Below, in pieces: positions 21,718-56,445 of a DNA stretch of 64,000 nucleotides. The stretch's first letter is position 1, and each line of letters begins with the position of its first letter. A program made the translations under genes and the position numbers. Where the stretch lies: positions 45,960 to 109,959 of the forward strand of contig JABHBL010000019.1 in the NCBI GenBank assembly GCA_018673925.1, in the 5' to 3' direction. The notes beneath the pieces were generated by a model. The model saw nothing but the letters and a program-made list of their open reading frames with translations. It made no database searches and was not told where the DNA came from. This DNA comes from Fidelibacterota bacterium (GTDB taxonomy: Bacteria > Fidelibacterota > UBA8477 > JABMPR01).

Positions 21718-21792
21718 GGGATCGTAGTTCAGCTTGGTTAGAACGCCGGCCTGTCAAGCCGGAGGTCGCCGGTTCGATCCCGGTCGGTCCCG
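21718..21792 (+). tRNA. tRNA-Asp (anticodon GTC)
   Basis: manual cloverleaf: 7 bp acceptor GGGATCG/CGGTCCC (one G-U), D-arm GTTC...GAAC, anticodon loop CTGTCAA, T-arm GCCGG-TTCGATC-CCGGT, discriminator G; near-identical to E. coli tRNA-Asp; CCA not encoded. Confidence 0.85.
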
Positions 21793-21795
21793 CAT

Positions 21796-21826
21796 TAAGC
21801 TCCTGAGAAATCAGGGGCTTTTTTGT
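21796..21826 (+). terminator. intrinsic terminator immediately after tRNA-Asp (CCTGAgaaaTCAGG + T6)
   Basis: hairpin plus T-run; part of the 43 bp direct repeat. Confidence 0.6.
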
Positions 21827-21829
21827 ATC

Positions 21830-22078
21830 ATGAATTATTACATATACATATTAGAAAGCAAGACTGGCAAGTTTTACATCGGGCAATCGGCCAACCTTGA
21901 AGCGCGATTAGAAAGACATAATAGTAATCGTGTAAAGTCGACCAAATTCAAAGGTCCTTGGAAAGTCATATATACTGAGCGCTATTCTTCTCGAAGTGAA
22001 GCTATGATCAGGGAGAAGCAGCTCAAGAAATGGCGGAGGGAATTGCTTCTGAACCTTATTAAGGGTACAAGTCAATGA
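21830..22078 (+). CDS. GIY-YIG nuclease family protein (82 aa)
   Basis: YIYILESKTGKFYIGQSANLEARLERHN = GIY-YIG/URI motif; start taken at MNYYIY (the ORF track's upstream extension runs through the tRNA). Confidence 0.8.
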   Translation: MNYYIYILESKTGKFYIGQSANLEARLERHNSNRVKSTKFKGPWKVIYTERYSSRSEAMIREKQLKKWRRELLLNLIKGTSQ

Positions 22079-22080
22079 AT

Positions 22081-22150
22081 GGAGGTCGTCCCGACCAAGC
22101 GTCGGGATCGGTCCCGCATTAAGCTCCTGAGAAATCAGGGGCTTTTTTGT
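22081..22150 (+). repeat. tRNA-Asp 3'-end-like fragment plus second terminator copy (direct repeat of 21784-21826; the 8 nt GGAGGTCG of 21761-21768 is also repeated)
   Basis: 43 bp perfect repeat TCGGTCCCGCATTAAGCTCCTGAGAAATCAGGGGCTTTTTTGT at 21784-21826 and 22108-22150; the T-arm is replaced by an unrelated perfect 7 bp hairpin TCCCGAC-caagc-GTCGGGA. Confidence 0.65.
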
Positions 22151-22246
22151 TTCTAGTATCCTTCCTCAATCAAATACCAACTTTGACTAATTGAAAAGCA
22201 ATTTGGTTTTCTTATGTTAGTGGCCTATCATTTGGAGCCTCAGCGT

Positions 22247-47437: not shown

Positions 47438-48400
47438 ATGACTGAAACTGAAACAACTACACCTCAATCTATTGATCCTATTCCAGGTGATCAAGGCTCT
47501 CCGGCTCTGGCATGTTATGGGATATCCAAACGATTTAAAAGCATTCAGGCACTGGATGATGTGAGTCTCAGCGTTCCGCGGGGATCCATTTTTGGGTTTC
47601 TCGGACCAAATGGAGCCGGAAAATCTACCCTGATTCGAGTGGTTGCCGGTCTCATTGCAGCTGACAAGGGACATTTTGATATCCTGGGTTACTCCAGCCT
47701 GAAGGGGCACGGGGTCCGTAAAGATATGAGTGCTCTGGTGGACCGAGCAGATTTTTATAAGAACCTCAGCGCCTATCAGAACATGAAAATCCTGGGAAGA
47801 ATCACTGGACATGATAGTAATGAACACATCAACCGGCTATTGGACCTATTAGGGTTGTATGATCGTCGTAAGGATAAGGTTAAAACCTTTTCGCAGGGAA
47901 TGAAACAACGTCTGGGTTTGGCTCAATCACTTCTCCCAGATCCAAAACTGTTGGTTCTGGATGAGCCCACCACTGGTCTTGACCCTCAGGGAATGCATGA
48001 AATTCGAGATTTTATTCTGAAAATAGCAGCTGAACAGAATGTGACGATATTTTTGTCATCCCACCTCCTCCACGAGGTTGAACTGATTTGTTCTGATATT
48101 GCCCTCATTTTTAATGGCAAGCTGGCTGCCCAGGGCTCAATGCAGAACATTTTTCGTGAGATAGATAATGTAACTATTGAGCTCGAGGTTGAGGATTCTA
48201 AAACCACTTTGGCCTTTCTGGAGAAGAACGATCTGGTTACTCAGATTACTCCACTGGCCAACGCTATCAGCATTGAGATTCACTACAATAGGATTCCTGA
48301 GCTCATTCGTCTTATGTCAGCCGCAAAGATCAATATTTTCTCAGTCTCCCAGCGGAATCGTCTGGAGAATTACTTTCTCTCACTCATGGAGGGAAAATGA
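47438..48400 (+). CDS. ABC transporter ATP-binding protein (ABC-2 subfamily)
   Basis: Walker A GPNGAGKST, signature FSQGMKQRL, Walker B LLVLDEPTTGLD. Confidence 0.85.
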   Translation: MTETETTTPQSIDPIPGDQGSPALACYGISKRFKSIQALDDVSLSVPRGSIFGFLGPNGAGKSTLIRVVAGLIAADKGHFDILGYSSLKGHGVRKDMSALVDRADFYKNLSAYQNMKILGRITGHDSNEHINRLLDLLGLYDRRKDKVKTFSQGMKQRLGLAQSLLPDPKLLVLDEPTTGLDPQGMHEIRDFILKIAAEQNVTIFLSSHLLHEVELICSDIALIFNGKLAAQGSMQNIFREIDNVTIELEVEDSKTTLAFLEKNDLVTQITPLANAISIEIHYNRIPELIRLMSAAKINIFSVSQRNRLENYFLSLMEGK

Positions 48401-49239
48401 TACTCTTTAAACTCACTCAAAACGAACTTTACAAAATTTTCTCACTGGTACGTTCTTATATAGGCATCATCTTATTTACCGGTATTGTGCCCCTCATCCT
48501 CTGGGGCTATGGTATGGGAACCTCCCACATTGAAGGTCAGATTGAGAGTTCTGTCTCGGATATGTTTTTTATCGAGGGCTCGCCTACCAACGGTTTTACT
48601 GCAGCATATTTTATCATGAATTTCTTCTGGATACATATCCCATTTCTACTGGCACTGGTTGGTGGGGACATCTTTGCCGGTGAACATGCGAATGGGACAT
48701 TCAGGGTTTATGCAACCAGACCAATCTCGCGAATGAGTATTTTCACATCCAAAGTTTTAGCCACCATGATCTATACCTTCATCTTTGTCTTTTACTTTGG
48801 CTTACTCACCCTTGGGCTGGGTTTGATCTGGCATGGTGGTGGGGATATGCTGGTGTTTCACAATGGCGTCCTTATTCTGGAATCTAGCGATGCACTTGTG
48901 CGATTTTTTATAGCCTATTTCTTCTCATTTATGAATATGGTTCTGGTGAGTTCCATTGCCATATTCTTCTCAACCATGGTGAGAAATGCAGTCGGTCCGG
49001 TAATTGGTACCATGGCATTGTTCATTTTTATCCTTATGGTTTCGTCTCTCCCTCTTGAGGTGTTTGAGGGTATTCAGCCATATCTCTTTACTACTTATTT
49101 TTCGAACTGGGAGCAGGCATTTTTTGATCCGATCCCCTGGCCTGATCTATTCAGAGGGATGGGCCTTGTTGGCTCCAACATCGTTATGTTTCTCGGTATT
49201 GCACTTATCATATTCCGGAGAAAGGATATCCTTTCATGA
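48397..49239 (+). CDS. ABC-2 family transporter permease
   Basis: 280 aa, 6 TM; ATGA-coupled to the ATPase. Confidence 0.6.
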   Translation: MILFKLTQNELYKIFSLVRSYIGIILFTGIVPLILWGYGMGTSHIEGQIESSVSDMFFIEGSPTNGFTAAYFIMNFFWIHIPFLLALVGGDIFAGEHANGTFRVYATRPISRMSIFTSKVLATMIYTFIFVFYFGLLTLGLGLIWHGGGDMLVFHNGVLILESSDALVRFFIAYFFSFMNMVLVSSIAIFFSTMVRNAVGPVIGTMALFIFILMVSSLPLEVFEGIQPYLFTTYFSNWEQAFFDPIPWPDLFRGMGLVGSNIVMFLGIALIIFRRKDILS

Positions 49240-49964
49240 GTCATATATATAAAAGCCTACTGATAATTATCATGCTATGCCTTTCAGCAGGCTCTTTTGC
49301 CCAAAAGAAATATCCCAGCCAACAGGAGTTGCAGGACCTGATGCTTGGAAACTGGGAGCGTATTGAAGATTATGAGGTAGATATAAAGCTGGCTCTGGAC
49401 ATCCCAGGGTTTCGTATGCCATCACGCAATATTCACTATATGTATAAATTTCCTGATAAGAGTAAAGTCGAGGTGAAAGGATTCGCTATAGTCCCTAAAC
49501 AAGGCATTCAACCTTTCTTTACTTTTTTACGGGATTCGGTCTCGCTCCAGATTGTAAATGACTCCCTGGTAAGTGGAGAGGCTCTATTTGAAGTTACCCT
49601 TGAAGACACGTTTATGAATGAACTGGGGACCATAAACTTTTTTGTAAATCAGGAGACAGGAAATATCACTGAAGCCTGGGTGGTCCATGAGGGTAGAGAA
49701 TTTTTCCGACTCACATCTGATTATGAACAAGTTGATGGCATTTATTTACCAACATCTACCGCCATTAAAATGACCTTCCCACCCGATTTTAAAAACCTGC
49801 AGCGTCTCGGTAAAAAACCAACTGACATGCGGGAATTCGATGCCAGCATGACTGATGAGTGGTTGGACGGTTCCATTAAAATTCAATTTAAAAATTATAA
49901 AGTCAATCGAGGTATTCCGGACTATAAGTTTGAGGATGAAACTGAAGACGCTATTCAGGATTAA
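49236..49964 (+). CDS. secreted hypothetical protein (LolA-like/DUF4292-like?) coupled to the ABC-2 exporter
   Basis: signal peptide CLSAGSFAQ; ATGA-coupled to the permease; fold guess only. Confidence 0.35.
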   Translation: MSHIYKSLLIIIMLCLSAGSFAQKKYPSQQELQDLMLGNWERIEDYEVDIKLALDIPGFRMPSRNIHYMYKFPDKSKVEVKGFAIVPKQGIQPFFTFLRDSVSLQIVNDSLVSGEALFEVTLEDTFMNELGTINFFVNQETGNITEAWVVHEGREFFRLTSDYEQVDGIYLPTSTAIKMTFPPDFKNLQRLGKKPTDMREFDASMTDEWLDGSIKIQFKNYKVNRGIPDYKFEDETEDAIQD

Positions 49965-50094
49965 ATCCCCCGATTCTGCGTTTCCTTTTTAGCTAATATT
50001 TTATCCAATAAATTGACCGAAATCTCTGGATTTGGGTTGAGTTTCATATCACAGCAAATACATTACTTTGCTTTTAATCTTGAAGGAGAAACTA

Positions 50095-51033
50095 TTGCGA
50101 AAAGCAGTTGTAGCTTTAGGTGGAAATGCTATCTCCCCACCTGGCGAAGTTGATTCAATTCGGAACCAGTTCAAGCACACCCGTGCCAGCCTGGGATCTA
50201 TTGTTGACCTCTTAAAACAGGATATTATTCCTGTCATTACTCATGGTAATGGTCCACAGGTAGGCAATGCTGCGCTACGTACTGAAGAACTGGCAGAATC
50301 CATCCCTTATTTACCACTGGGTATCAATGTTGCCGATACTGAAGGCGGCATGGGTTATATGATAGAACAATCCCTGATCAACCGGCTCAGATCAGACGGA
50401 ATTCATCGACAGGTTGTCACCTTGATCTCTCAAGTTTTGGTCGATGAAAATGATCCCTCCATTCAGAATCCCACCAAGTATATAGGTACTGAATTGCCTG
50501 AAGACGAAGCTCGGGAAAAAGCTGCTCAATTTGGCTGGAGTATCAAGAAGTTGGATAATGGCAATTGGAGACGGGTCGTACCCTCGCCTGAGCCTATCGA
50601 TATTATTAATTCTAAGGTCATTAGCGAACTTATAGAGGCTGGTCATATTGTCATCGCAGTTGGTGGTGGTGGAGTCCCGGCCTTTCGAGATGTTGATGAC
50701 AACCTTGAAGGTCTTGATGCAGTCATTGATAAGGATAAGGCTTCTGCCCTACTGGGTACCCAGATTGGTGCTGAACTACTCTATATCTTTACCAATGTGG
50801 AACGTGTCTCATTGAATTTTGGCAAAGAGAATGAACAACTTCTGGCAAATATTACGCTAGCAGAAGCAAAACAGTATCTGACTGAGGGGCATTTCCCTCC
50901 TGGAAATATGGGACCAAAGATCGAAGCCAGTATCAATTTTCTTGAAGGTGGTGGAAAGCAGGTCATTATCACCAGTATTGAGGGCATCCAAAAAGATTCT
51001 TCAGGACAAAATGGAACCATTATAACACACTGA
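50095..51033 (+). CDS. arcC: carbamate kinase
   Basis: VVALGGNAI, HGNGPQVG, C-terminal ...GGGKQVIITS; start moved to TTG 50095, 7 nt after GAAGGAGA (ORF-track ATG 50068 has no SD). Confidence 0.8.
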   Translation: MRKAVVALGGNAISPPGEVDSIRNQFKHTRASLGSIVDLLKQDIIPVITHGNGPQVGNAALRTEELAESIPYLPLGINVADTEGGMGYMIEQSLINRLRSDGIHRQVVTLISQVLVDENDPSIQNPTKYIGTELPEDEAREKAAQFGWSIKKLDNGNWRRVVPSPEPIDIINSKVISELIEAGHIVIAVGGGGVPAFRDVDDNLEGLDAVIDKDKASALLGTQIGAELLYIFTNVERVSLNFGKENEQLLANITLAEAKQYLTEGHFPPGNMGPKIEASINFLEGGGKQVIITSIEGIQKDSSGQNGTIITH

Positions 51034-51096
51034 TTTATATATAAAATATGTCTCATTTATGACTGAGATACTGACAAAAAAAAGAGGAAGTAATAC

Positions 51097-52260
51097 ATGA
51101 ACATTCATGAGTATCAGGCGAAAGAGATCTTTCGGAAATACAATGTCCCGGTTCCCAACGGTGGCGTTGCATATTCTGTTGAAGAGGCTTTAAATGTAGC
51201 CAAATCTCTTGACTCAAGCATCTTTGTAGTCAAAGCCCAGATTCATGCAGGGGGACGCGGTAAGGCCGGCGGTGTGAAAATTGCTAAAAACCTTGACGAA
51301 GTAACACTGCACGCCAATGAAATATTAGGTAAAACACTGGTAACTCACCAGACAGGACCTGCTGGAAAAACGGTAGGACGTCTACTGGTTGAAGAGGGTA
51401 TCGATATTGCCAGAGAGCTATATATGGGGATTGTTCTGGATCGGCAAACCGGACAGTTCGTGTTTATGGTTTCTGTTGAAGGTGGTATGGAAATTGAAAA
51501 AGTTGCCTCTGAAACTCCAGAAAAGATCATTAAGGAGTGGATTGAACCCGGTATGGGTCTCCAGGCTTTCCAGGCTAGGAAGTTAGCCTATGCTCTGGGT
51601 CTTCAGGGAGTTCAAGTCAGAGAAGCTGTCAAGTTTATGTTTGCATTGTGGAATGCTTTTAATGCTTCAGATGCATCCCTGGTAGAGATCAACCCGCTTG
51701 TTGTTACAGGTAATGGACATGTCATGGCATTGGATGCCAAAATGAATTTTGATGACAATGCACTTTACAGACAAGCTGAAATACTTGAGTATCGGGATCT
51801 CAGTGAAGAAGAACCCTCAGAAGTTGAAGCATCCAGTTATAACCTGAACTACATCAAATTGGATGGAAATGTGGGTTGTATGGTCAATGGGGCTGGTCTG
51901 GCCATGGGTACAATGGATATCATCAAATTGTATGGTGGAGAACCTGCCAATTTCCTCGATGTTGGCGGCGTTGCCAATCCTGACACTGTGTCCAATGGAT
52001 TCCGTATCATTATGAGTGACTCCAATGTTAAAGCAGTCTTGATCAACATTTTTGGTGGAATTGTCAGGTGTGATCGTGTGGCAATGGGTATCATTTTAGC
52101 ACTTGAAAAGGTGAAAGTGAATGTCCCAATCGTTGTAAGACTGGCTGGGACAAACGCAGAAGAGGGTGCTCGGCTTCTGGCTAATTCTGATATTGATTTT
52201 ATTGTTGCCACAAGTCTGGCTGAAGCTGCAGAAAAAGTAACTGCAGCCATCAAGGAGTAA
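51097..52260 (+). CDS. sucC: succinate--CoA ligase (ADP-forming) beta subunit
   Basis: [20 protein letters not shown]..., ATP-grasp plus CoA-ligase domains. Confidence 0.92.
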
Positions 52261-52264
52261 TCGC

Positions 52265-53137
52265 ATGATTCTAGTTAATAATGACACAAAGCTGGTTGTC
52301 CAGGGGATTACTGGCAGCGAGGGATCCTTCCACACAGCACAGATGTTGGAATATGGTACTCAGGTTGTTGCAGGCGTCACACCTGGAAAAGGTGGACAAA
52401 CTACTGAAACTGGTGTACCGATTTTCAATACAGTTCAAGAGGCAAAAGACAAAGTCCAGGCCAACACATCTGTCATTTTCGTCCCACCCCCGTTTGCCGC
52501 AGATGCTATTATGGAAGCTGTGGATGCGGAATTGGATTTGGTGATCTGTATAACTGAAGGTATTCCTACCTCTGATATGGTCAAAGTTCATGAATATATG
52601 GCTGGTAAAAAGACTCGTATGGTTGGCCCTAACTGTCCTGGTGTCATTTCACCAGGGGCTGGAAAAATTGGTATCATGCCAGGTTTTATTCATCAGGAAG
52701 GCAAAGTTGGGGTTATATCACGAAGTGGCACCCTCACCTATGAAGCTGTGCACCAATTGAGCTCTCGCGGTATTGGCCAATCCACCTGCATTGGAATTGG
52801 TGGGGATCCAATTATCGGTTCTAACTTTATTGACCTGCTCGACCTGTTTAATCAGGATGAAGGTACAGAGGCCGTGGTTATGATCGGTGAGATTGGTGGA
52901 ACCGCAGAAGAAGAAGCTGCCGAATGGGCACAGAAGAATTTCACCAAGCCTATTGTGGCATTTATTGCTGGTACCACGGCTCCTCCAGGACGCCGTATGG
53001 GTCATGCAGGTGCCATTATTTCAGGTGGCAAGGGAACTGCATCAGATAAGATTGCCGCTCTTAAAGCTGCAGGTATTGCAGTTTCTGAAAGCCCTGCTGG
53101 AATTGGTGAGCTCATGGAAGAAATTTTAAAGAAATAA
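52265..53137 (+). CDS. sucD: succinate--CoA ligase alpha subunit
   Basis: [16 protein letters not shown], catalytic His in ...GHAGAII... Confidence 0.92.
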
Positions 53138-53276
53138 GGTAATGTCATCCTGGGCTCGCCTGCCTATGCCGAAGACGGTCTCCGTGCAGGCAGGTCGAAG
53201 GATGCAAAATAGAATTACCATGTGTCATACTTCGACAAGCTCAGCAAGACACATGTAACAAATAGGAGTAAAGATT

Positions 53277-53705
53277 TTGGGTAACAAAACATTCGCAATG
53301 ATCAAACCTGATGCCGTGGCATCTGGAAAACTTGGCAAAGTCATCGATGCCACCTTGCAAGCTGGTTTTTCAATTAAAGGGGGTCGTCTGACTCTGATTA
53401 CACGTGCACAGGCAGAAGAATTTTACGCTGTTCACCGGGAACGTCCTTTCTATGGAGAGCTGGTTGACTTCATGTCTTCTGGTCAAACATTTGTAATGGC
53501 ATTGGAAAAAGACAACGCTGTTCAGGCCTGGAGAGATACAATTGGTGCCACAGATCCAGCTGAAGCTGCAGATGGTACAATCCGTAAAATGTATGCAGAG
53601 AATAAGGGTAGAAATGCAGTTCATGGCTCCGACTCAGATGAGAATGCTGAGAAAGAGATTGCATTTTTCTTTAGTGGGGCTGAAATTATCGCCTCTAATC
53701 TCTAA
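53277..53705 (+). CDS. ndk: nucleoside-diphosphate kinase
   Basis: TFAMIKPDAV, NAVHGSDS active-site His; TTG start 7 nt after AGGAG. Confidence 0.9.
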   Translation: MGNKTFAMIKPDAVASGKLGKVIDATLQAGFSIKGGRLTLITRAQAEEFYAVHRERPFYGELVDFMSSGQTFVMALEKDNAVQAWRDTIGATDPAEAADGTIRKMYAENKGRNAVHGSDSDENAEKEIAFFFSGAEIIASNL

Positions 53706-53731
53706 TTATTAGCCTGTATCAGGAGGCAGAA

Positions 53732-54571
53732 ATGACTAATAATGTTCTACTTAAACGCGCTTTATTGATTCTGATAGTTCTAAGCATTATTGTCAGCTGC
53801 GACATGTGGAATAGCCGATTTGGGCGTGATGAGGTCAATCTGGGTGAATATATCACCCTCCAAGTTGATGAACCTGTCGAAGGACAGAAAATAAACTGGA
53901 TCTTTGCCCAATTACCGGATAGTAGCCAATTGCTCGGATTTCTGCCTTCTGATACACTTGATTTAGTTTCTTTTAAACCGGATTTTGCTGGAGAATATGA
54001 TGTGGTTCTTGAAGTCACAGCAGATGGTGAAACCGAACAGACCAAGTATTTTTATGAAGCTGTCATGAGTGAAGATAATACGCTGGTCGAAGGTGACATT
54101 CCAGACCATGTCATAGAGGCATCAAAAAATAACGATACCACCGTTGCAGATACACCTTCTGTAAGTCTCACTGATGAAGGTGTCCAACGACGTTATCTTT
54201 CCAAAATGAAATCTCCTGGTGAACCGAAGAAACCACGTAAAAGTATTGCAAAGAGAAAAAAAGCTGCAAAATCAAAACCTGCTGTAACCAGTCGCGGAAA
54301 TCTTATTCCGCTGGCTTCAAGAACGTATACAATACAGGTTTCATCCTGGCCATCACTTGATGAGGCTCAATCTGCTTCACATGACCTCCAACAAAAATAC
54401 GGTATTGATAGTTATATCCAGAGAGCCTTTTTTAAGGATAAAGATGAAATCTATTATCGTCTGCGCGTAGGAAATTTCCAGGAATCAAAAGATGCGGAAG
54501 CCTACGCCAAAGAAATCCAGGGTATGACCAGCCTCCCTGTCTGGGTTGACTTTGTTCGGCAGGAAATGTAA
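53732..54571 (+). CDS. SPOR-domain (peptidoglycan-binding) protein
   Basis: N-terminal TM; C-terminal YTIQVSSWPSLDEAQSASHDLQQKYGIDSYIQRAFFKDKDEIYYRLRVGNFQESKDAEAYAKEI = SPOR repeat. Confidence 0.65.
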   Translation: MTNNVLLKRALLILIVLSIIVSCDMWNSRFGRDEVNLGEYITLQVDEPVEGQKINWIFAQLPDSSQLLGFLPSDTLDLVSFKPDFAGEYDVVLEVTADGETEQTKYFYEAVMSEDNTLVEGDIPDHVIEASKNNDTTVADTPSVSLTDEGVQRRYLSKMKSPGEPKKPRKSIAKRKKAAKSKPAVTSRGNLIPLASRTYTIQVSSWPSLDEAQSASHDLQQKYGIDSYIQRAFFKDKDEIYYRLRVGNFQESKDAEAYAKEIQGMTSLPVWVDFVRQEM

Positions 54572-54610
54572 TCTAAATAATTATTAAAACTTCAAAGCGG
54601 AGAATCACCC

Positions 54611-55876
54611 ATGCTTGAAACTCAACTGCATTTCAATTTCAAGGATATGTTTCGTGTGCCTCGTTTAGCACTTGGCCGGAGAATGTTGGTTATGCTGGAG
54701 GCACTCCTGGCCTCATACATAGTTTATCTTTTCATGACATATCTTGCACTGCTGGTAGAAGGTCATTCCCTTGGAAGTATTTGGAATGATTTTCATCTCA
54801 TGCCATCCTCTATTCTTTGCCTGGCCGATAGTACAATTGGACACATCCTGGTAGCTCTGTCGTATACGTTTTCGATCATTATTCTCTGGTTGGGACTTAC
54901 CTCAGTAGCAAAGATTACCATAAAAGAGTATAAAGGTGACCTATTTTATTCCTCCAGAGATGGTTGGAAATGGGCTATGAAGAATTGGTTCCCCGTATTT
55001 TTTGGACCTATTTCAATTGGAATCATCGTTGGATTTTTTGTTCTGTTAGCTGCACTCTTTGGATGGTTGGCTCAATGGCCAGTTTTGGATATCATTTTTT
55101 ATGGTCTCCTCTTCGTCATTTTCCTACCCACGGCTCTCTTCCTGGCATTTTCCGCTCTGGCTTTTGGTGTTGGACTATTCATGTCACCCAGCATTGTTGC
55201 CTGTGCTGAGGAAGACACCATGGGTTCCATGTTTGGATCCTATACCTTGCTCTGGAATCAACCAGTGCGTCTAATCACCTACACGCTGATGACGATCGTT
55301 GCTGCCATGATAGGGTATCAGATATTTTATGTATTCATTCTATCTGCCTTCAAATTTATCGAAATGGTGTTTGGACATGAGATGATCATGGGCAATGCAT
55401 ATGTCGCTATTAAACAGGTAGGTATGGATTTGTTCGGGAATTACAGCTTCCTACCCTCAAGCATATTTGCCGGATATTGTAGTGATTCTACCTGTCTTTT
55501 GATGCCCGATTGTTTAAGCAGTATATATGAACCTATCGCCGCTGGTTGTGGCGGTGGAGGTTGTGGTGGTTGCGCATCTGCAGCACCTGCGGTTGTATCA
55601 GCGACAATCACTCAGACAATCACAGGGGTTGTAGTTGGCATATTTACCCTTCTGGCTCACCTGGCTGTACCAGCCTATGCGCTGGCCACAATGGCAACAG
55701 GATTCGCCACCTCATTCATCGTACTGACCAAGCACAAGGATGATCAGGATTTGATCAAACGCAAAGATGCTGATGAACGCGCAGAGGCTGAGGCCGCTGA
55801 AGCTGAAGAAGAAGCCCAGGCTGAGACTTCAGCAGATGCAGAGGAAGCTAAAACAGATGAGCCTGATACCGAATAA
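54611..55876 (+). CDS. hypothetical polytopic membrane protein with Cys/Gly cluster and acidic Ala/Glu tail
   Basis: about 8 TM; AAGCGGGGCGGCASAAPA; C-terminal DADERAEAEAAEAEEEAQAETSADAEEAKTDEPDTE. Confidence 0.4.
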   Translation: MLETQLHFNFKDMFRVPRLALGRRMLVMLEALLASYIVYLFMTYLALLVEGHSLGSIWNDFHLMPSSILCLADSTIGHILVALSYTFSIIILWLGLTSVAKITIKEYKGDLFYSSRDGWKWAMKNWFPVFFGPISIGIIVGFFVLLAALFGWLAQWPVLDIIFYGLLFVIFLPTALFLAFSALAFGVGLFMSPSIVACAEEDTMGSMFGSYTLLWNQPVRLITYTLMTIVAAMIGYQIFYVFILSAFKFIEMVFGHEMIMGNAYVAIKQVGMDLFGNYSFLPSSIFAGYCSDSTCLLMPDCLSSIYEPIAAGCGGGGCGGCASAAPAVVSATITQTITGVVVGIFTLLAHLAVPAYALATMATGFATSFIVLTKHKDDQDLIKRKDADERAEAEAAEAEEEAQAETSADAEEAKTDEPDTE

Positions 55877-55902
55877 GTCGATCACTTCATAGAAATAAAA
55901 AA

Positions 55903-55927
55903 GGCTGAGTCTGACTCAGCCTTTTTT
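55903..55927. terminator. bidirectional intrinsic terminator (GGCTGAGTCtGACTCAGCC, A6 before / T6 after)
   Basis: 9 bp perfect palindrome between convergent genes 54611-55876(+) and 55948-56445(-). Confidence 0.7.
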
Positions 55928-55947
55928 ATTGCGCATTTTGTTTTAGT

Positions 55948-56445
55948 CTAGCTCCTATGGAACCATTCATTATTTTCTTGACGGGCACGAGGTTTCCCCA
56001 GAATCTCATGGAGAATGATACCTTGCTCAATCTTTGAATAGGGTTCTAAAACCTCTTCAAGGGATTGACCACCACCTTCATGACTTTCCTCCAGCGTAGC
56101 TACCGTAGTCAAGGGATGAGCGTGGGTGTGCTCTTTCGAGCCTTCCTCATACTGTGGTGATGGCTCAATCTCCTCAACTGGAATCTCTGCTTCCTCTTCA
56201 GGTTCATATTCAGGCATGGCCTGTTGGAAAGTCAGAGGCTCCTCATCTATCTCAAACAACTCTTTCTTGAGTTGATCAAGTATCCCACCTACCTCTTTTA
56301 ACGGTTTAGAGATTGGAGATGATGATTGAGTTCCAGGTTTCTCTGTTGGTCTGGCTCTCTTCCTGGCCTTGTTTTGCTTAGACCAGGCAGAGATAGCCAT
56401 ATAAACGATAAATAGAACTATTGGACCTAGGTTGTCCAAATCCAT
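55948..56445 (-). CDS. hypothetical small membrane-anchored acidic protein (YqfB-like position downstream of floA)
   Basis: N-terminal TM then Glu/Pro-rich region; third gene of the nfeD-floA operon as in B. subtilis yqeZ-yqfA-yqfB. Confidence 0.35.
   Translation of the reverse strand: MDLDNLGPIVLFIVYMAISAWSKQNKARKRARPTEKPGTQSSSPISKPLKEVGGILDQLKKELFEIDEEPLTFQQAMPEYEPEEEAEIPVEEIEPSPQYEEGSKEHTHAHPLTTVATLEESHEGGGQSLEEVLEPYSKIEQGIILHEILGKPRARQENNEWFHRS

Follow-up and report, generated by a model that had tools for sequence, protein, structure and literature searches.

What kind of element places a small nuclease gene between a transfer RNA (tRNA) gene and a broken copy of that same gene? The question is raised by a stretch of 64,000 nt from a Fidelibacterota bacterium (GenBank assembly GCA_018673925.1, contig JABHBL010000019.1, positions 45,960 to 109,959 of the forward strand), referred to here as the window, in which an intact tRNA-Asp(GTC) gene is followed by an open reading frame (ORF) for a small GIY-YIG nuclease and then by a partial pseudo-tRNA-Asp. 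We consider it fairly probable that these parts form a variable, tandemly amplifying, tRNA-embedded Ssn-like cassette, which lies in the tRNA-Asp transcription unit and carries its nuclease gene together with one recognition-type hairpin. The Ssn proteins are site-specific single-stranded-DNA (ssDNA) endonucleases with NTS/SRM hairpins (SsnA, Neisseria meningitidis; cd10448; Chenal et al., Nat Commun 2025, PMC11893778).

A nuclease gene between tRNA-Asp and its partial copy

A reading of this locus from its letters alone, the sequence-only reading, had proposed a tRNA-Asp(GTC) gene, a terminator, an 82-amino-acid GIY-YIG ORF and a second tRNA 3' piece, and ARAGORN, Rfam, Pfam, a terminator scan and the sequence itself place all four where it had put them (Table 1). 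Its perfect 43-bp duplication was also recovered: the repeat core, TCGGTCCCGCATTAAGCTCCTGAGAAATCAGGGGCTTTTTTGT, occurs exactly twice in the window (21784-21826 and 22108-22150) and in none of 100 shuffles. The core belongs to a direct repeat of 46 nt at 98% identity with a repeat-to-repeat spacing of 324 nt, and the whole cassette is bracketed by the two copies of the tRNA 3' end plus terminator. Terminator-like hairpins number 2, against 0.6 expected from shuffles. The real gene reads GGAGGTCG-CCGG-TTCGATC-CCGG-TCGG through its variable loop and T arm; GGAGGTCG, which consists of the variable loop and the first T-stem base, starts at 21761 and again at 22081, where the pseudo-tRNA-Asp begins 2 nt after the ORF stop. 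An Rfam search of the cassette region returned the tRNA only, plus two sub-threshold chance matches.

Table 1. Features of the tRNA-Asp cassette, in window coordinates
Feature	Position	Strand	Evidence
tRNA-Asp(GTC), intact gene	21718-21792/3	+	ARAGORN; Rfam RF00005, 67.5 bits
Direct repeat copy 1: tRNA acceptor 3' strand TCGGTCCCGCA and terminator	21784..21829	+	Repeat search
Intrinsic terminator 1: 10-bp stem (21797-21820), GAAA loop, T run	21797..21826	+	Terminator scan
Minimal single-domain GIY-YIG nuclease gene, 82 amino acids, Ssn-like	21830..22078	+	Pfam PF01541, E=4e-20
Partial pseudo-tRNA-Asp: GGAGGTCG, hairpin in T-arm place, TCGGTCCCGCA	22081..22118	+	Sequence; alignment with real tRNAs and relatives' pseudo-copies
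SRM-like hairpin GTC-G-[TCCCGAC CAAGC GTCGGGA]-T-C, predicted nuclease binding site on single-stranded + strand	22085..22109	+	Hairpin search; relatives
Direct repeat copy 2: acceptor 3' strand and terminator 2	22108..22153	+	Repeat search
Terminator 2, identical hairpin and T run (stem)	22121-22144	+	Terminator scan

The arrangement is no assembly artefact, because the identical protein was found in 42 blocks of the sequence collection (23 contigs read; 14 reported places with the same neighbour genes) and because the arrangement turns up again, in diverged form, in independent assemblies from JGI, ENA, Logan and NCBI. The ATG of the ORF stands 3 nt past the T run of terminator 1, and the sole promoter-scan match near the ORF overlaps its start codon and cannot drive it. 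Given this spacing and the lack of a usable promoter upstream, the nuclease gene would be expressed by read-through of the tRNA terminator.

Direct repeats that include a tRNA 3' end are typical of tRNA-integrating elements, and the sequence-only reading had offered, as one of two explanations, the scar of an excised tRNA-integrated element. In its fuller form this would be an integrase-mediated island that entered and then left the 3' end of tRNA-Asp, with an attL/attR remnant and the GIY-YIG gene as leftover cargo. We find this hardly credible: neither the 324 nt nor their surroundings contain an integrase or another mobile-element gene, the upstream neighbours (UvrD, YceG and DUF3098) are syntenic host genes, the terminator is included in the repeat, and the same design of gene plus pseudo-tRNA recurs, with the hairpin constant, at many tRNAs and in unrelated phyla (see below).

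The hairpin TCCCGAC-CAAGC-GTCGGGA (22089-22107), with its perfect 7-bp stem, exactly fills the T-arm position of the pseudo-tRNA. No other TCCC...GGGA hairpin in the window has a stem of 6 bp or more, and this one also forms in the predicted ssDNA fold of the surrounding 80 nt, a fold of unusual stability (z=-4.1). That the T arm had been replaced by a perfect hairpin was seen correctly from the letters alone, but the hairpin is not the unrelated sequence it was taken for, since it resembles the SRM/NTS recognition hairpin of Ssn (PMC11893778). In Ssn substrates a GTC upstream is needed for cutting and a C after the palindrome for binding (PMC11893778); on the + strand of the window, GGTCG-TCCCGAC-CAAGC-GTCGGGA-TC (22084-22109) has the same GTC on its 5' side, a stem whose base is TCCC/GGGA, and a C after the stem. 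The palindrome is closed by G·T, not A-T, and the C is thus the second base past the perfect stem. A resemblance of the GGGATCG after the hairpin to a permuted acceptor stem is most likely coincidence.

The Pfam GIY-YIG domain spans residues 2-71 of the 82, with no second domain and no DNA-binding module. Residues Y6, Y16, R26 and H30 are invariant and E62 nearly invariant in a 30-sequence alignment. Ssn proteins are likewise single-domain GIY-YIG proteins, and Y6, Y17 and E64 are essential in SsnA (PMC11893778); Y6, Y16 and E62 were matched to these by position, not by aligning to SsnA itself. The nearest solved structures are the UPF0213 proteins BH0048 (1zg2, E=1.9e-11) and EF2693 (1ywl, E=2.9e-7). 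By phmmer the window protein scores 44-50 bits against SRM-flanked Ssn homologues and 47 bits against BH0048, with canonical Ssn-type proteins reaching only 14-32 bits against BH0048. The window protein contains the motif REKQLKKW, and REKQ[LI]KKW is also found in the SRM-flanked homologues, a common motif that favours a placement on the Ssn side. As the scores to Ssn homologues and to BH0048 are nearly equal, the protein is best called Ssn-like, its membership of the Ssn clade (cd10448) being unproven. There was no NCBIfam match above cut-off. Its only relatives in an alignment against viral contigs are at most 36% identical, and the cassette protein is therefore not a phage feature.

The same locus in Marinimicrobia

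Near-identical matches to the flanking YceG/MltG are named Candidatus Marinimicrobia. The order UvrD-YceG-DUF3098-tRNA-Asp is kept in all relatives examined, and the gene downstream of the cassette, a Golvesin_C protein in the window, varies by lineage. In four relatives a GIY-YIG ORF directly follows tRNA-Asp: L002 (YceG 69% and GIY-YIG 62% identical to the window), L008 (66% and 63%), L009 (49% and 57%) and L092 (about 35-38% and 56%). In the first three, the module 3' of the ORF reads (C)GGAGGTCG-TCCCGAC-[5-6 nt loop]-GTCGGGA-TCGGTCCCGCA and is followed by a terminator. L008 carries two such units in tandem with a 316-nt period. In L002 the terminator after the real tRNA is unlike that after the pseudo-copy, the latter being of the type found in the window and in L099, a relative that lacks the ORF.

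The hairpin stem is 100% identical in the window, L002, L008 and L009, with loops that vary, and the real T stems of the same genomes change compensatorily (CCGG/CCGG, CGGG/CCCG, CGAG/CTCG). Two other pseudo-copies carry two hairpins each. That of L092 begins in the D loop, with TCCCGAC/GTCGGGA replacing the anticodon arm and CCCCGAC/GTCGGGG interrupting the T arm; in the L012 pseudo-copy both arms are replaced, by TCCCGCC/GGCGGGA and CCCCGCC/GGCGGGG. These variants are compensatory double changes, and the hairpin is conserved with such changes across deep lineages. Within L092 and within L012 the base pair that varies is the same in both hairpins, which is what recognition of the two by a single protein would lead one to expect. 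Comparison of the ORFs between lineages gave a proportion of nonsynonymous differences (pN) of about 0.3 and of synonymous differences (pS) of about 0.9, which is saturated, and the two tandem ORF copies of L008 have a ratio of nonsynonymous to synonymous rates (dN/dS) of 0.19; the protein is therefore under purifying selection. Because synonymous sites of the ORF are saturated over the same lineages, the invariant hairpin stem cannot be neutral. The idea that the 5' boundary of the pseudo-tRNA marks the nuclease cut site was dropped, since the distance from boundary to hairpin is very different in L092, L012 and the KSB1 locus L131.

A metagenome scan with a loose hairpin-plus-acceptor pattern, which carried no requirement of complementarity, gave 28 matches, among them 4 real modules (the L002 contig, two of L009 type and an orphan, L107); the others were chance matches in high-GC DNA, since complementarity was not enforced. 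The same pattern gave one chance match in viral contigs. The orphan (JGI Ga0209427_10265854, L107 1158-1196, minus strand) reads CCCCGAC-AGATGT-GTCGGGA-TCGGTCCCGCA and lies on a 1.4-kb contig with neither a tRNA nor a GIY-YIG gene.

In the three closest lineages examined, L094-97, L098 and L099 (YceG 91%, 85% and 78% identical to the window), tblastn found no GIY-YIG ORF. All three retain DUF3098-tRNA-Asp-terminator; the tRNA-Asp is identical to that of the window and its terminator identical or nearly so, with the L099 gene trailed by the same terminator type. Alignment to these relatives shows identity across the tRNA and terminator and divergence right after CTTTTTTGT. The ORF is thus variable in presence and absent from the closest relatives, and tandem copy number varies as well. 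The comparison with empty sites proposed in the sequence-only reading therefore succeeded in part, in that the ORF is missing from these relatives, but none of them offers a pristine empty site. By YceG identity the window is nested among the three ORF-less lineages, and vertical descent would need at least three losses, unless the ORF was regained in the window lineage. The matrix of GIY-YIG identities is star-like (49-63%) and not congruent with the host matrix; with so short a protein this is weak evidence.

The ORF-less relatives have additions of their own. At the site after the tRNA-Asp terminator where the window has its nuclease gene, L098 (1668-2045) and L099 (1740-2031) carry tandem non-coding units of about 187 and about 173 nt, respectively, on the reverse strand relative to the tRNA, each unit restarting with a copy of the terminator. 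Each L098 unit closes with a mini pseudo-tRNA, GGGGCGTAGTT-hairpin-AGACCAATCCCGCA, with the hairpin TTCCGC-TTGA-GCGGAA. These units, which may be non-autonomous derivatives, bear on a caution attached to the sequence-only reading, that a partial duplication found without the GIY-YIG gene would speak against a nuclease-borne element: gene-less, terminator-bounded tandem units do exist at this site, to which extent the caution was justified. In L094-L097 (reverse strand, about 1950-2130) the intact tRNA is preceded by 12-15 nt that duplicate the 5' end of tRNA-Asp (TTTGGGATCGTAGTT) and by about 85 nt of inserted sequence; this insert contains the anticodon-arm region as an inverted, diverged copy and has no ORF. 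From the nuclease-less units and the 5'-end copies in ORF-less relatives, the tRNA-Asp 3' flank is a hot spot of terminator-bounded tandem units, whose cargo is either a nuclease gene or non-coding DNA.

Presence/absence polymorphism among relatives, and cassette flanks homologous to a highly conserved target gene, are also what a classical free-standing homing endonuclease would produce. Such an enzyme would cut the double-stranded tRNA-Asp gene of cassette-free genomes, and double-strand-break repair would copy the cassette in by means of its tRNA-derived arms; the GIY-YIG enzyme SegB of the phage T4 tRNA cluster offers a precedent (PMC2330249, PMC13096335). We nevertheless think homing of this kind improbable for the window. 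Its protein is a catalytic domain of 82 amino acids only, with a score of 25.4 bits against TIGR01453 (group I intron endonuclease; cut-off 56), and its characterised relatives do not cut double-stranded DNA (PMC11893778). The resident tRNA-Asp is not immune, being identical to that of ORF-less relatives, and viral contigs hold only the distant relatives noted above. Of the minimal homing-type selfish element at tRNA 3' ends that was proposed from the letters alone, the small, variable, tRNA-tied unit stands, and the classical homing, for want of a DNA-binding domain, does not.

Homologues beside other tRNAs

When genomes were scanned with a 9-sequence protein alignment, 80 loci were recovered; they come from many phyla and are 34-52% identical. 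At about 24 of the 80, direct repeats of 17 nt or longer lie on either side of the ORF. Most of the 80 have hairpins of the form gtcaTTCCCGCG-AAAG-CGCGGGAAtcc or tgtcgTCCC(C/T)G...GGGAccca, placed some 50 nt before the ORF and 60-90 nt after it. These hairpins are the NTS/SRM element of the Ssn family (PMC11893778). A tRNA lies within 160 nt at only about 6 of these distant loci. Two flanks, from a Saccharibacteria metagenome-assembled genome (MAG; L014) and a Phycisphaerae MAG (L017), have a distinct common motif, ATTCGACTC(A/G)CTTCG...GCTCATGG paired with GAGTCGAATGTCCTGAGT, which may be another hairpin type of the nuclease family; L017 also has a tRNA 3' part about 110 nt upstream of the ORF.

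Close homologues present a different picture. Every one with readable context is tRNA-linked and co-directional with the tRNA, and lies between a real tRNA and a pseudo-tRNA in which an arm is replaced or interrupted by a GC hairpin. The tRNA species concerned are Asp, Asn, Pro, Gln, Met and Lys, and the tRNA-linked form is found in Marinimicrobia, KSB1, Chitinophaga and the candidate phyla radiation (Gracilibacteria, Woesebacteria). The short tRNA-linked proteins also group by score (window-L013, 68 bits; L013-L026, 70 bits). The window cassette belongs to this tRNA-linked, Ssn-like branch, which is widespread and apparently undescribed. Two points raised in the sequence-only reading are borne out here: close homologues do occur beside other tRNAs, with partial tRNA copies at Asn, Pro, Gln, Met and Lys, and copy number does vary, from two tandem units in L008 to at least 7 in the tRNA-Asn homologue.

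The longest array follows a tRNA-Asn (L129/L130; GCA_942492055.1, CALODP010000019.1), with at least 7 tandem units of 382 nt at 99% identity (L130 618-2717). Each unit consists of a terminator, an 88-amino-acid GIY-YIG ORF and a pseudo-Asn in which the 5' half of the anticodon stem is replaced by TCCGGC-AGT-TGCCGGA, and the array ends in a truncated ORF. In the KSB1 locus (L131) the order is pseudo-Pro (GGTCG-TCCCGAA-GC-TTCGGGA-TCGC), ORF, tRNA-Pro, pseudo-Pro, and in L132 it is pseudo-Gln with a D-loop hairpin, ORF, tRNA-Gln. A second proline locus (L093 2589-3306, JGI 3300029624) has a Ser-Pro-Arg tRNA cluster, then two copies of a pseudo-Pro with its T arm replaced plus ORF, then tRNA-Pro; ARAGORN calls one of these pseudo-copies a tRNA-Pro. 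Here the final codons and stop of the ORF (...GV*) overlap the 5' end of the next real or pseudo-tRNA, so that RNase P processing would remove the stop codon. Five homologues end in ...GV (P0015, P0018, P0019, P0020 and P0024).

Methionine tRNAs are used at two loci. In a Candidatus Gracilibacteria MAG (L013 2940-3470) a pseudo-Met with its anticodon arm replaced is followed by the ORF, by two ORF-deleted units and by tRNA-Met. The start codon of the nuclease is formed within the T loop of the pseudo-tRNA-Met (GGATTCAATG), the frame can extend into the next pseudo-tRNA, and the two 72-nt units look like copies with nearly the whole ORF deleted. The Chitinophaga locus (L026) reads flank plus pseudo-Met, ORF, flank plus tRNA-Met, terminator, second pseudo-Met, terminator, with 47 nt of the upstream flank duplicated. 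Further homologues lie at a tRNA-Lys (L028) and, in Woesebacteria (L031), at a tRNA-Asn with genes on both sides.

A GIY-YIG gene also lies between tRNA-Ile(GAT) and a tRNA-Ala-like gene (L040 1091-1670), with a minihelix-like sequence ending in CCACCA directly after the tRNA-Ile. The tRNA-Ile/tRNA-Ala spacer arrangement is typical of rRNA operons.

Overlaps between ORF and tRNA raise another explanation, that the hairpin-bearing tRNA mimic acts at the level of RNA, by helping to process or stabilise the mRNA of the nuclease (RNase P/Z punctuation or 3' protection), and is not a DNA site. All parts are co-transcribed in one orientation, the ORF ends within the 5' end of a real or pseudo-tRNA in L093, L131 and L132 and starts in a pseudo T loop in L013, and compensatory changes in the hairpin are equally compatible with RNA. 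We think such a role very improbable all the same, since the fragments in the window, L002, L008 and L009 lack the 5' acceptor strand, so that no tRNA-like fold is possible, and the pseudo-tRNA matches no Rfam family. Moreover, the stem sequence itself is conserved and the TCCC/GGGA hairpin also flanks homologues without tRNA context, which points to recognition by a protein, and SsnA does not bind RNA (PMC11893778).

Possible mobility and comparison with known systems

Against a tandemly amplifying Ssn-like cassette stand several observations. The published strict SRM pattern, HGTCWYN(0-2)YYVSBRHN(0-5)WNVSBRGN(0-2)RNCYNB, has no match anywhere in the window, nor has the strict NTS pattern; the SRM pattern also misses the tgtcgTCCC...GGGAccca hairpins beside many homologues, and the window hairpin resembles a 'GTCG-TCCC' variant beside alphaproteobacterial homologues. 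The hairpin occurs once, on the downstream side of the gene, whereas ssn genes have a hairpin nearby in 71% of cases and on both sides in 42% of homologues (PMC11893778); the position equivalent to an upstream hairpin is the real T arm of tRNA-Asp. The window protein scores about equally against SRM-flanked Ssn homologues and BH0048. Tandem units without a nuclease gene at the same site imply that repeats may form with no nuclease at work in cis. Neither a circle nor an excision junction nor a pristine empty site was seen, and the GC skew is weak and does not show which strand the replication fork exposes (on the + strand +0.064 at window positions 48001-56000 and about -0.04 elsewhere in the window). 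Finally, a gene kept at one locus under purifying selection down to about 35% YceG identity fits a host-useful gene equally well.

The last point introduces the main rival, a host-domesticated small nuclease. On this account the gene is a vertically inherited housekeeping or ssDNA-restriction gene that uses the strong tRNA promoter, the repeat and pseudo-tRNA come from local slippage or unequal crossing-over at a terminator prone to recombination, and the ORF was lost in some lineages. The constancy of the UvrD-YceG-DUF3098-tRNA-Asp-ORF locus, the strong purifying selection, the gene-less terminator-bounded units and the single hairpin in 64 kb all fit, and domestication is the explanation that the authors of the Ssn paper favour for Neisseria SsnA (PMC11893778). 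Domestication has, however, to accommodate at least three losses or one re-gain among successive ORF-less relatives, a star-like GIY-YIG matrix incongruent with that of the hosts, arrays of up to at least 7 near-identical copies, truncated copies such as that at the end of the L130 array, and the same architecture at six tRNA species in unrelated phyla; slippage leaves the exact replacement of a tRNA arm by a conserved hairpin unexplained. We therefore regard it as unlikely, though a serious competitor.

If the locus is indeed a variable Ssn-like cassette, its workings can be sketched by analogy. Ssn proteins bind their hairpin only in ssDNA, cut a few nucleotides 5' of it and are inactive on double-stranded DNA and RNA (PMC11893778). 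The window protein would likewise bind its hairpin only on a single-stranded + (sense) strand, such as replication or heavy tRNA transcription might provide, and the predicted nick would fall a few nucleotides 5' of the hairpin, directly before GTCG and close to where the ORF meets the pseudo-tRNA. The real T arm has the GGTCG and TC flanks and not the TCCC/GGGA stem. Since Ssn activity is abolished when the hairpin is retained with an altered sequence (PMC11893778), the real T arm would be spared and a working tRNA preserved. A break could stimulate recombination between the tRNA-derived direct repeats, leading to deletion, duplication or release of a circle, and a circle bearing the pseudo-tRNA could re-enter cognate tRNA genes by homologous (Campbell-type) recombination. 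Together these steps would account for the arrays, for the derivative units that lack the ORF and for the patchiness of the distribution. Re-entry of this type would give the layout of repeat, cargo and repeat, including the 47-nt flank duplication of L026, and the unlike terminators after the real and pseudo-copies of L002 are what circle integration predicts. The common flanks GGTCG...TC suggest that the T arm was replaced by template switching or conversion at these sequences, a route inapplicable to the anticodon-arm replacements.

A broader proposal, which we put forward tentatively and hold to be possible rather than probable, is that such cassettes are a class of tRNA-gene parasites found across phyla. 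Each would combine a minimal ssDNA nuclease with a tRNA mimic that has the recognition hairpin of the nuclease in place of at least one arm, would use the single-stranded sense strand of heavily transcribed tRNA genes, and would keep one working tRNA while amplifying in tandem and moving by means of conserved tRNA homology. If true, this would be the first natural evidence of mobility of an Ssn-hairpin unit and would name a source of its single-stranded substrate. Ssn was described only in 2025, and its role outside Neisseria and the mobility of hairpin-gene-hairpin units are questions on which the tRNA-linked form bears. It offers natural experiments, in the presence and absence of the gene among close relatives, in arrays of 2 to at least 7 units and in ORF-less derivatives, and it supplies a concrete predicted substrate, a hairpin exactly in the place of a T arm or anticodon arm. 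It also accounts for a class of odd bacterial 'tRNA pseudogenes', among them one that ARAGORN still reports as a tRNA. As each such nuclease comes with its own predicted hairpin, the family may interest builders of ssDNA tools.

Several known systems share single features with the cassette. Minimal stand-alone GIY-YIG proteins of the UPF0213/YhbQ type have been described (PMC1564403). The window protein resembles these bacterial Slx1-like proteins (BH0048, EF2693) in being such a minimal stand-alone domain, but BH0048 and EF2693 lack REKQ[LI]KKW. We know of no report of a hairpin or tRNA association for UPF0213/YhbQ. T4 SegB cleaves the DNA of a related phage in its tRNA gene region and is able to bring about segmental amplification (PMC2330249, PMC13096335). 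Like the cassette it has a GIY-YIG gene placed among tRNA genes, is variable in its presence and is linked to tandem amplification. Unlike the window protein, SegB is larger, phage-borne and cuts double-stranded DNA. To our knowledge no pseudo-tRNA with a recognition hairpin has been reported for it.

Islands and prophages with tyrosine integrases likewise have direct repeats of a tRNA 3' end and keep an intact tRNA on one side, but the window has no integrase, its insert is 324 nt, the terminator lies in the repeat and the displaced copy carries a conserved foreign hairpin. IS200/IS605 and REP/RAYT elements also combine a small nuclease gene with hairpins recognised in ssDNA on one strand, and they too have non-autonomous hairpin derivatives. 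They use the HUH/Y1 fold and no tRNA mimicry, whereas the sole ORF of the window cassette is GIY-YIG. We know of no strand-transfer chemistry for GIY-YIG enzymes.

The closest comparison is with Ssn itself. The window protein is, like Ssn, a single-domain GIY-YIG protein of fewer than 100 amino acids with conserved Tyr/Tyr/Glu, and its gene has beside it a short GC hairpin, with GTC on the 5' side, TCCC...GGGA at the base of the stem and a C after the stem (beyond a closing G·T). At about 80 amino acids it lacks the C-terminal extension of canonical homologues, which have roughly 95. Its hairpin, unlike those of Ssn, is embedded in a partial tRNA copy, where it replaces the T arm exactly; the other flank of the gene is a real tRNA and not a second hairpin, and there is one hairpin in 64 kb instead of hundreds per genome. 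The Ssn authors likened NTS-ssnA-NTS to an insertion sequence, and the word 'tRNA' is absent from their paper (PMC11893778). Our literature search found no paper linking minimal GIY-YIG or Ssn genes to tRNA pseudo-copies. As far as we found in the literature, then, the Ssn nuclease and its recognition hairpin were known, and what is new is a hairpin of this type built into a tRNA mimic beside the cognate tRNA, in a tandemly amplifying cassette.

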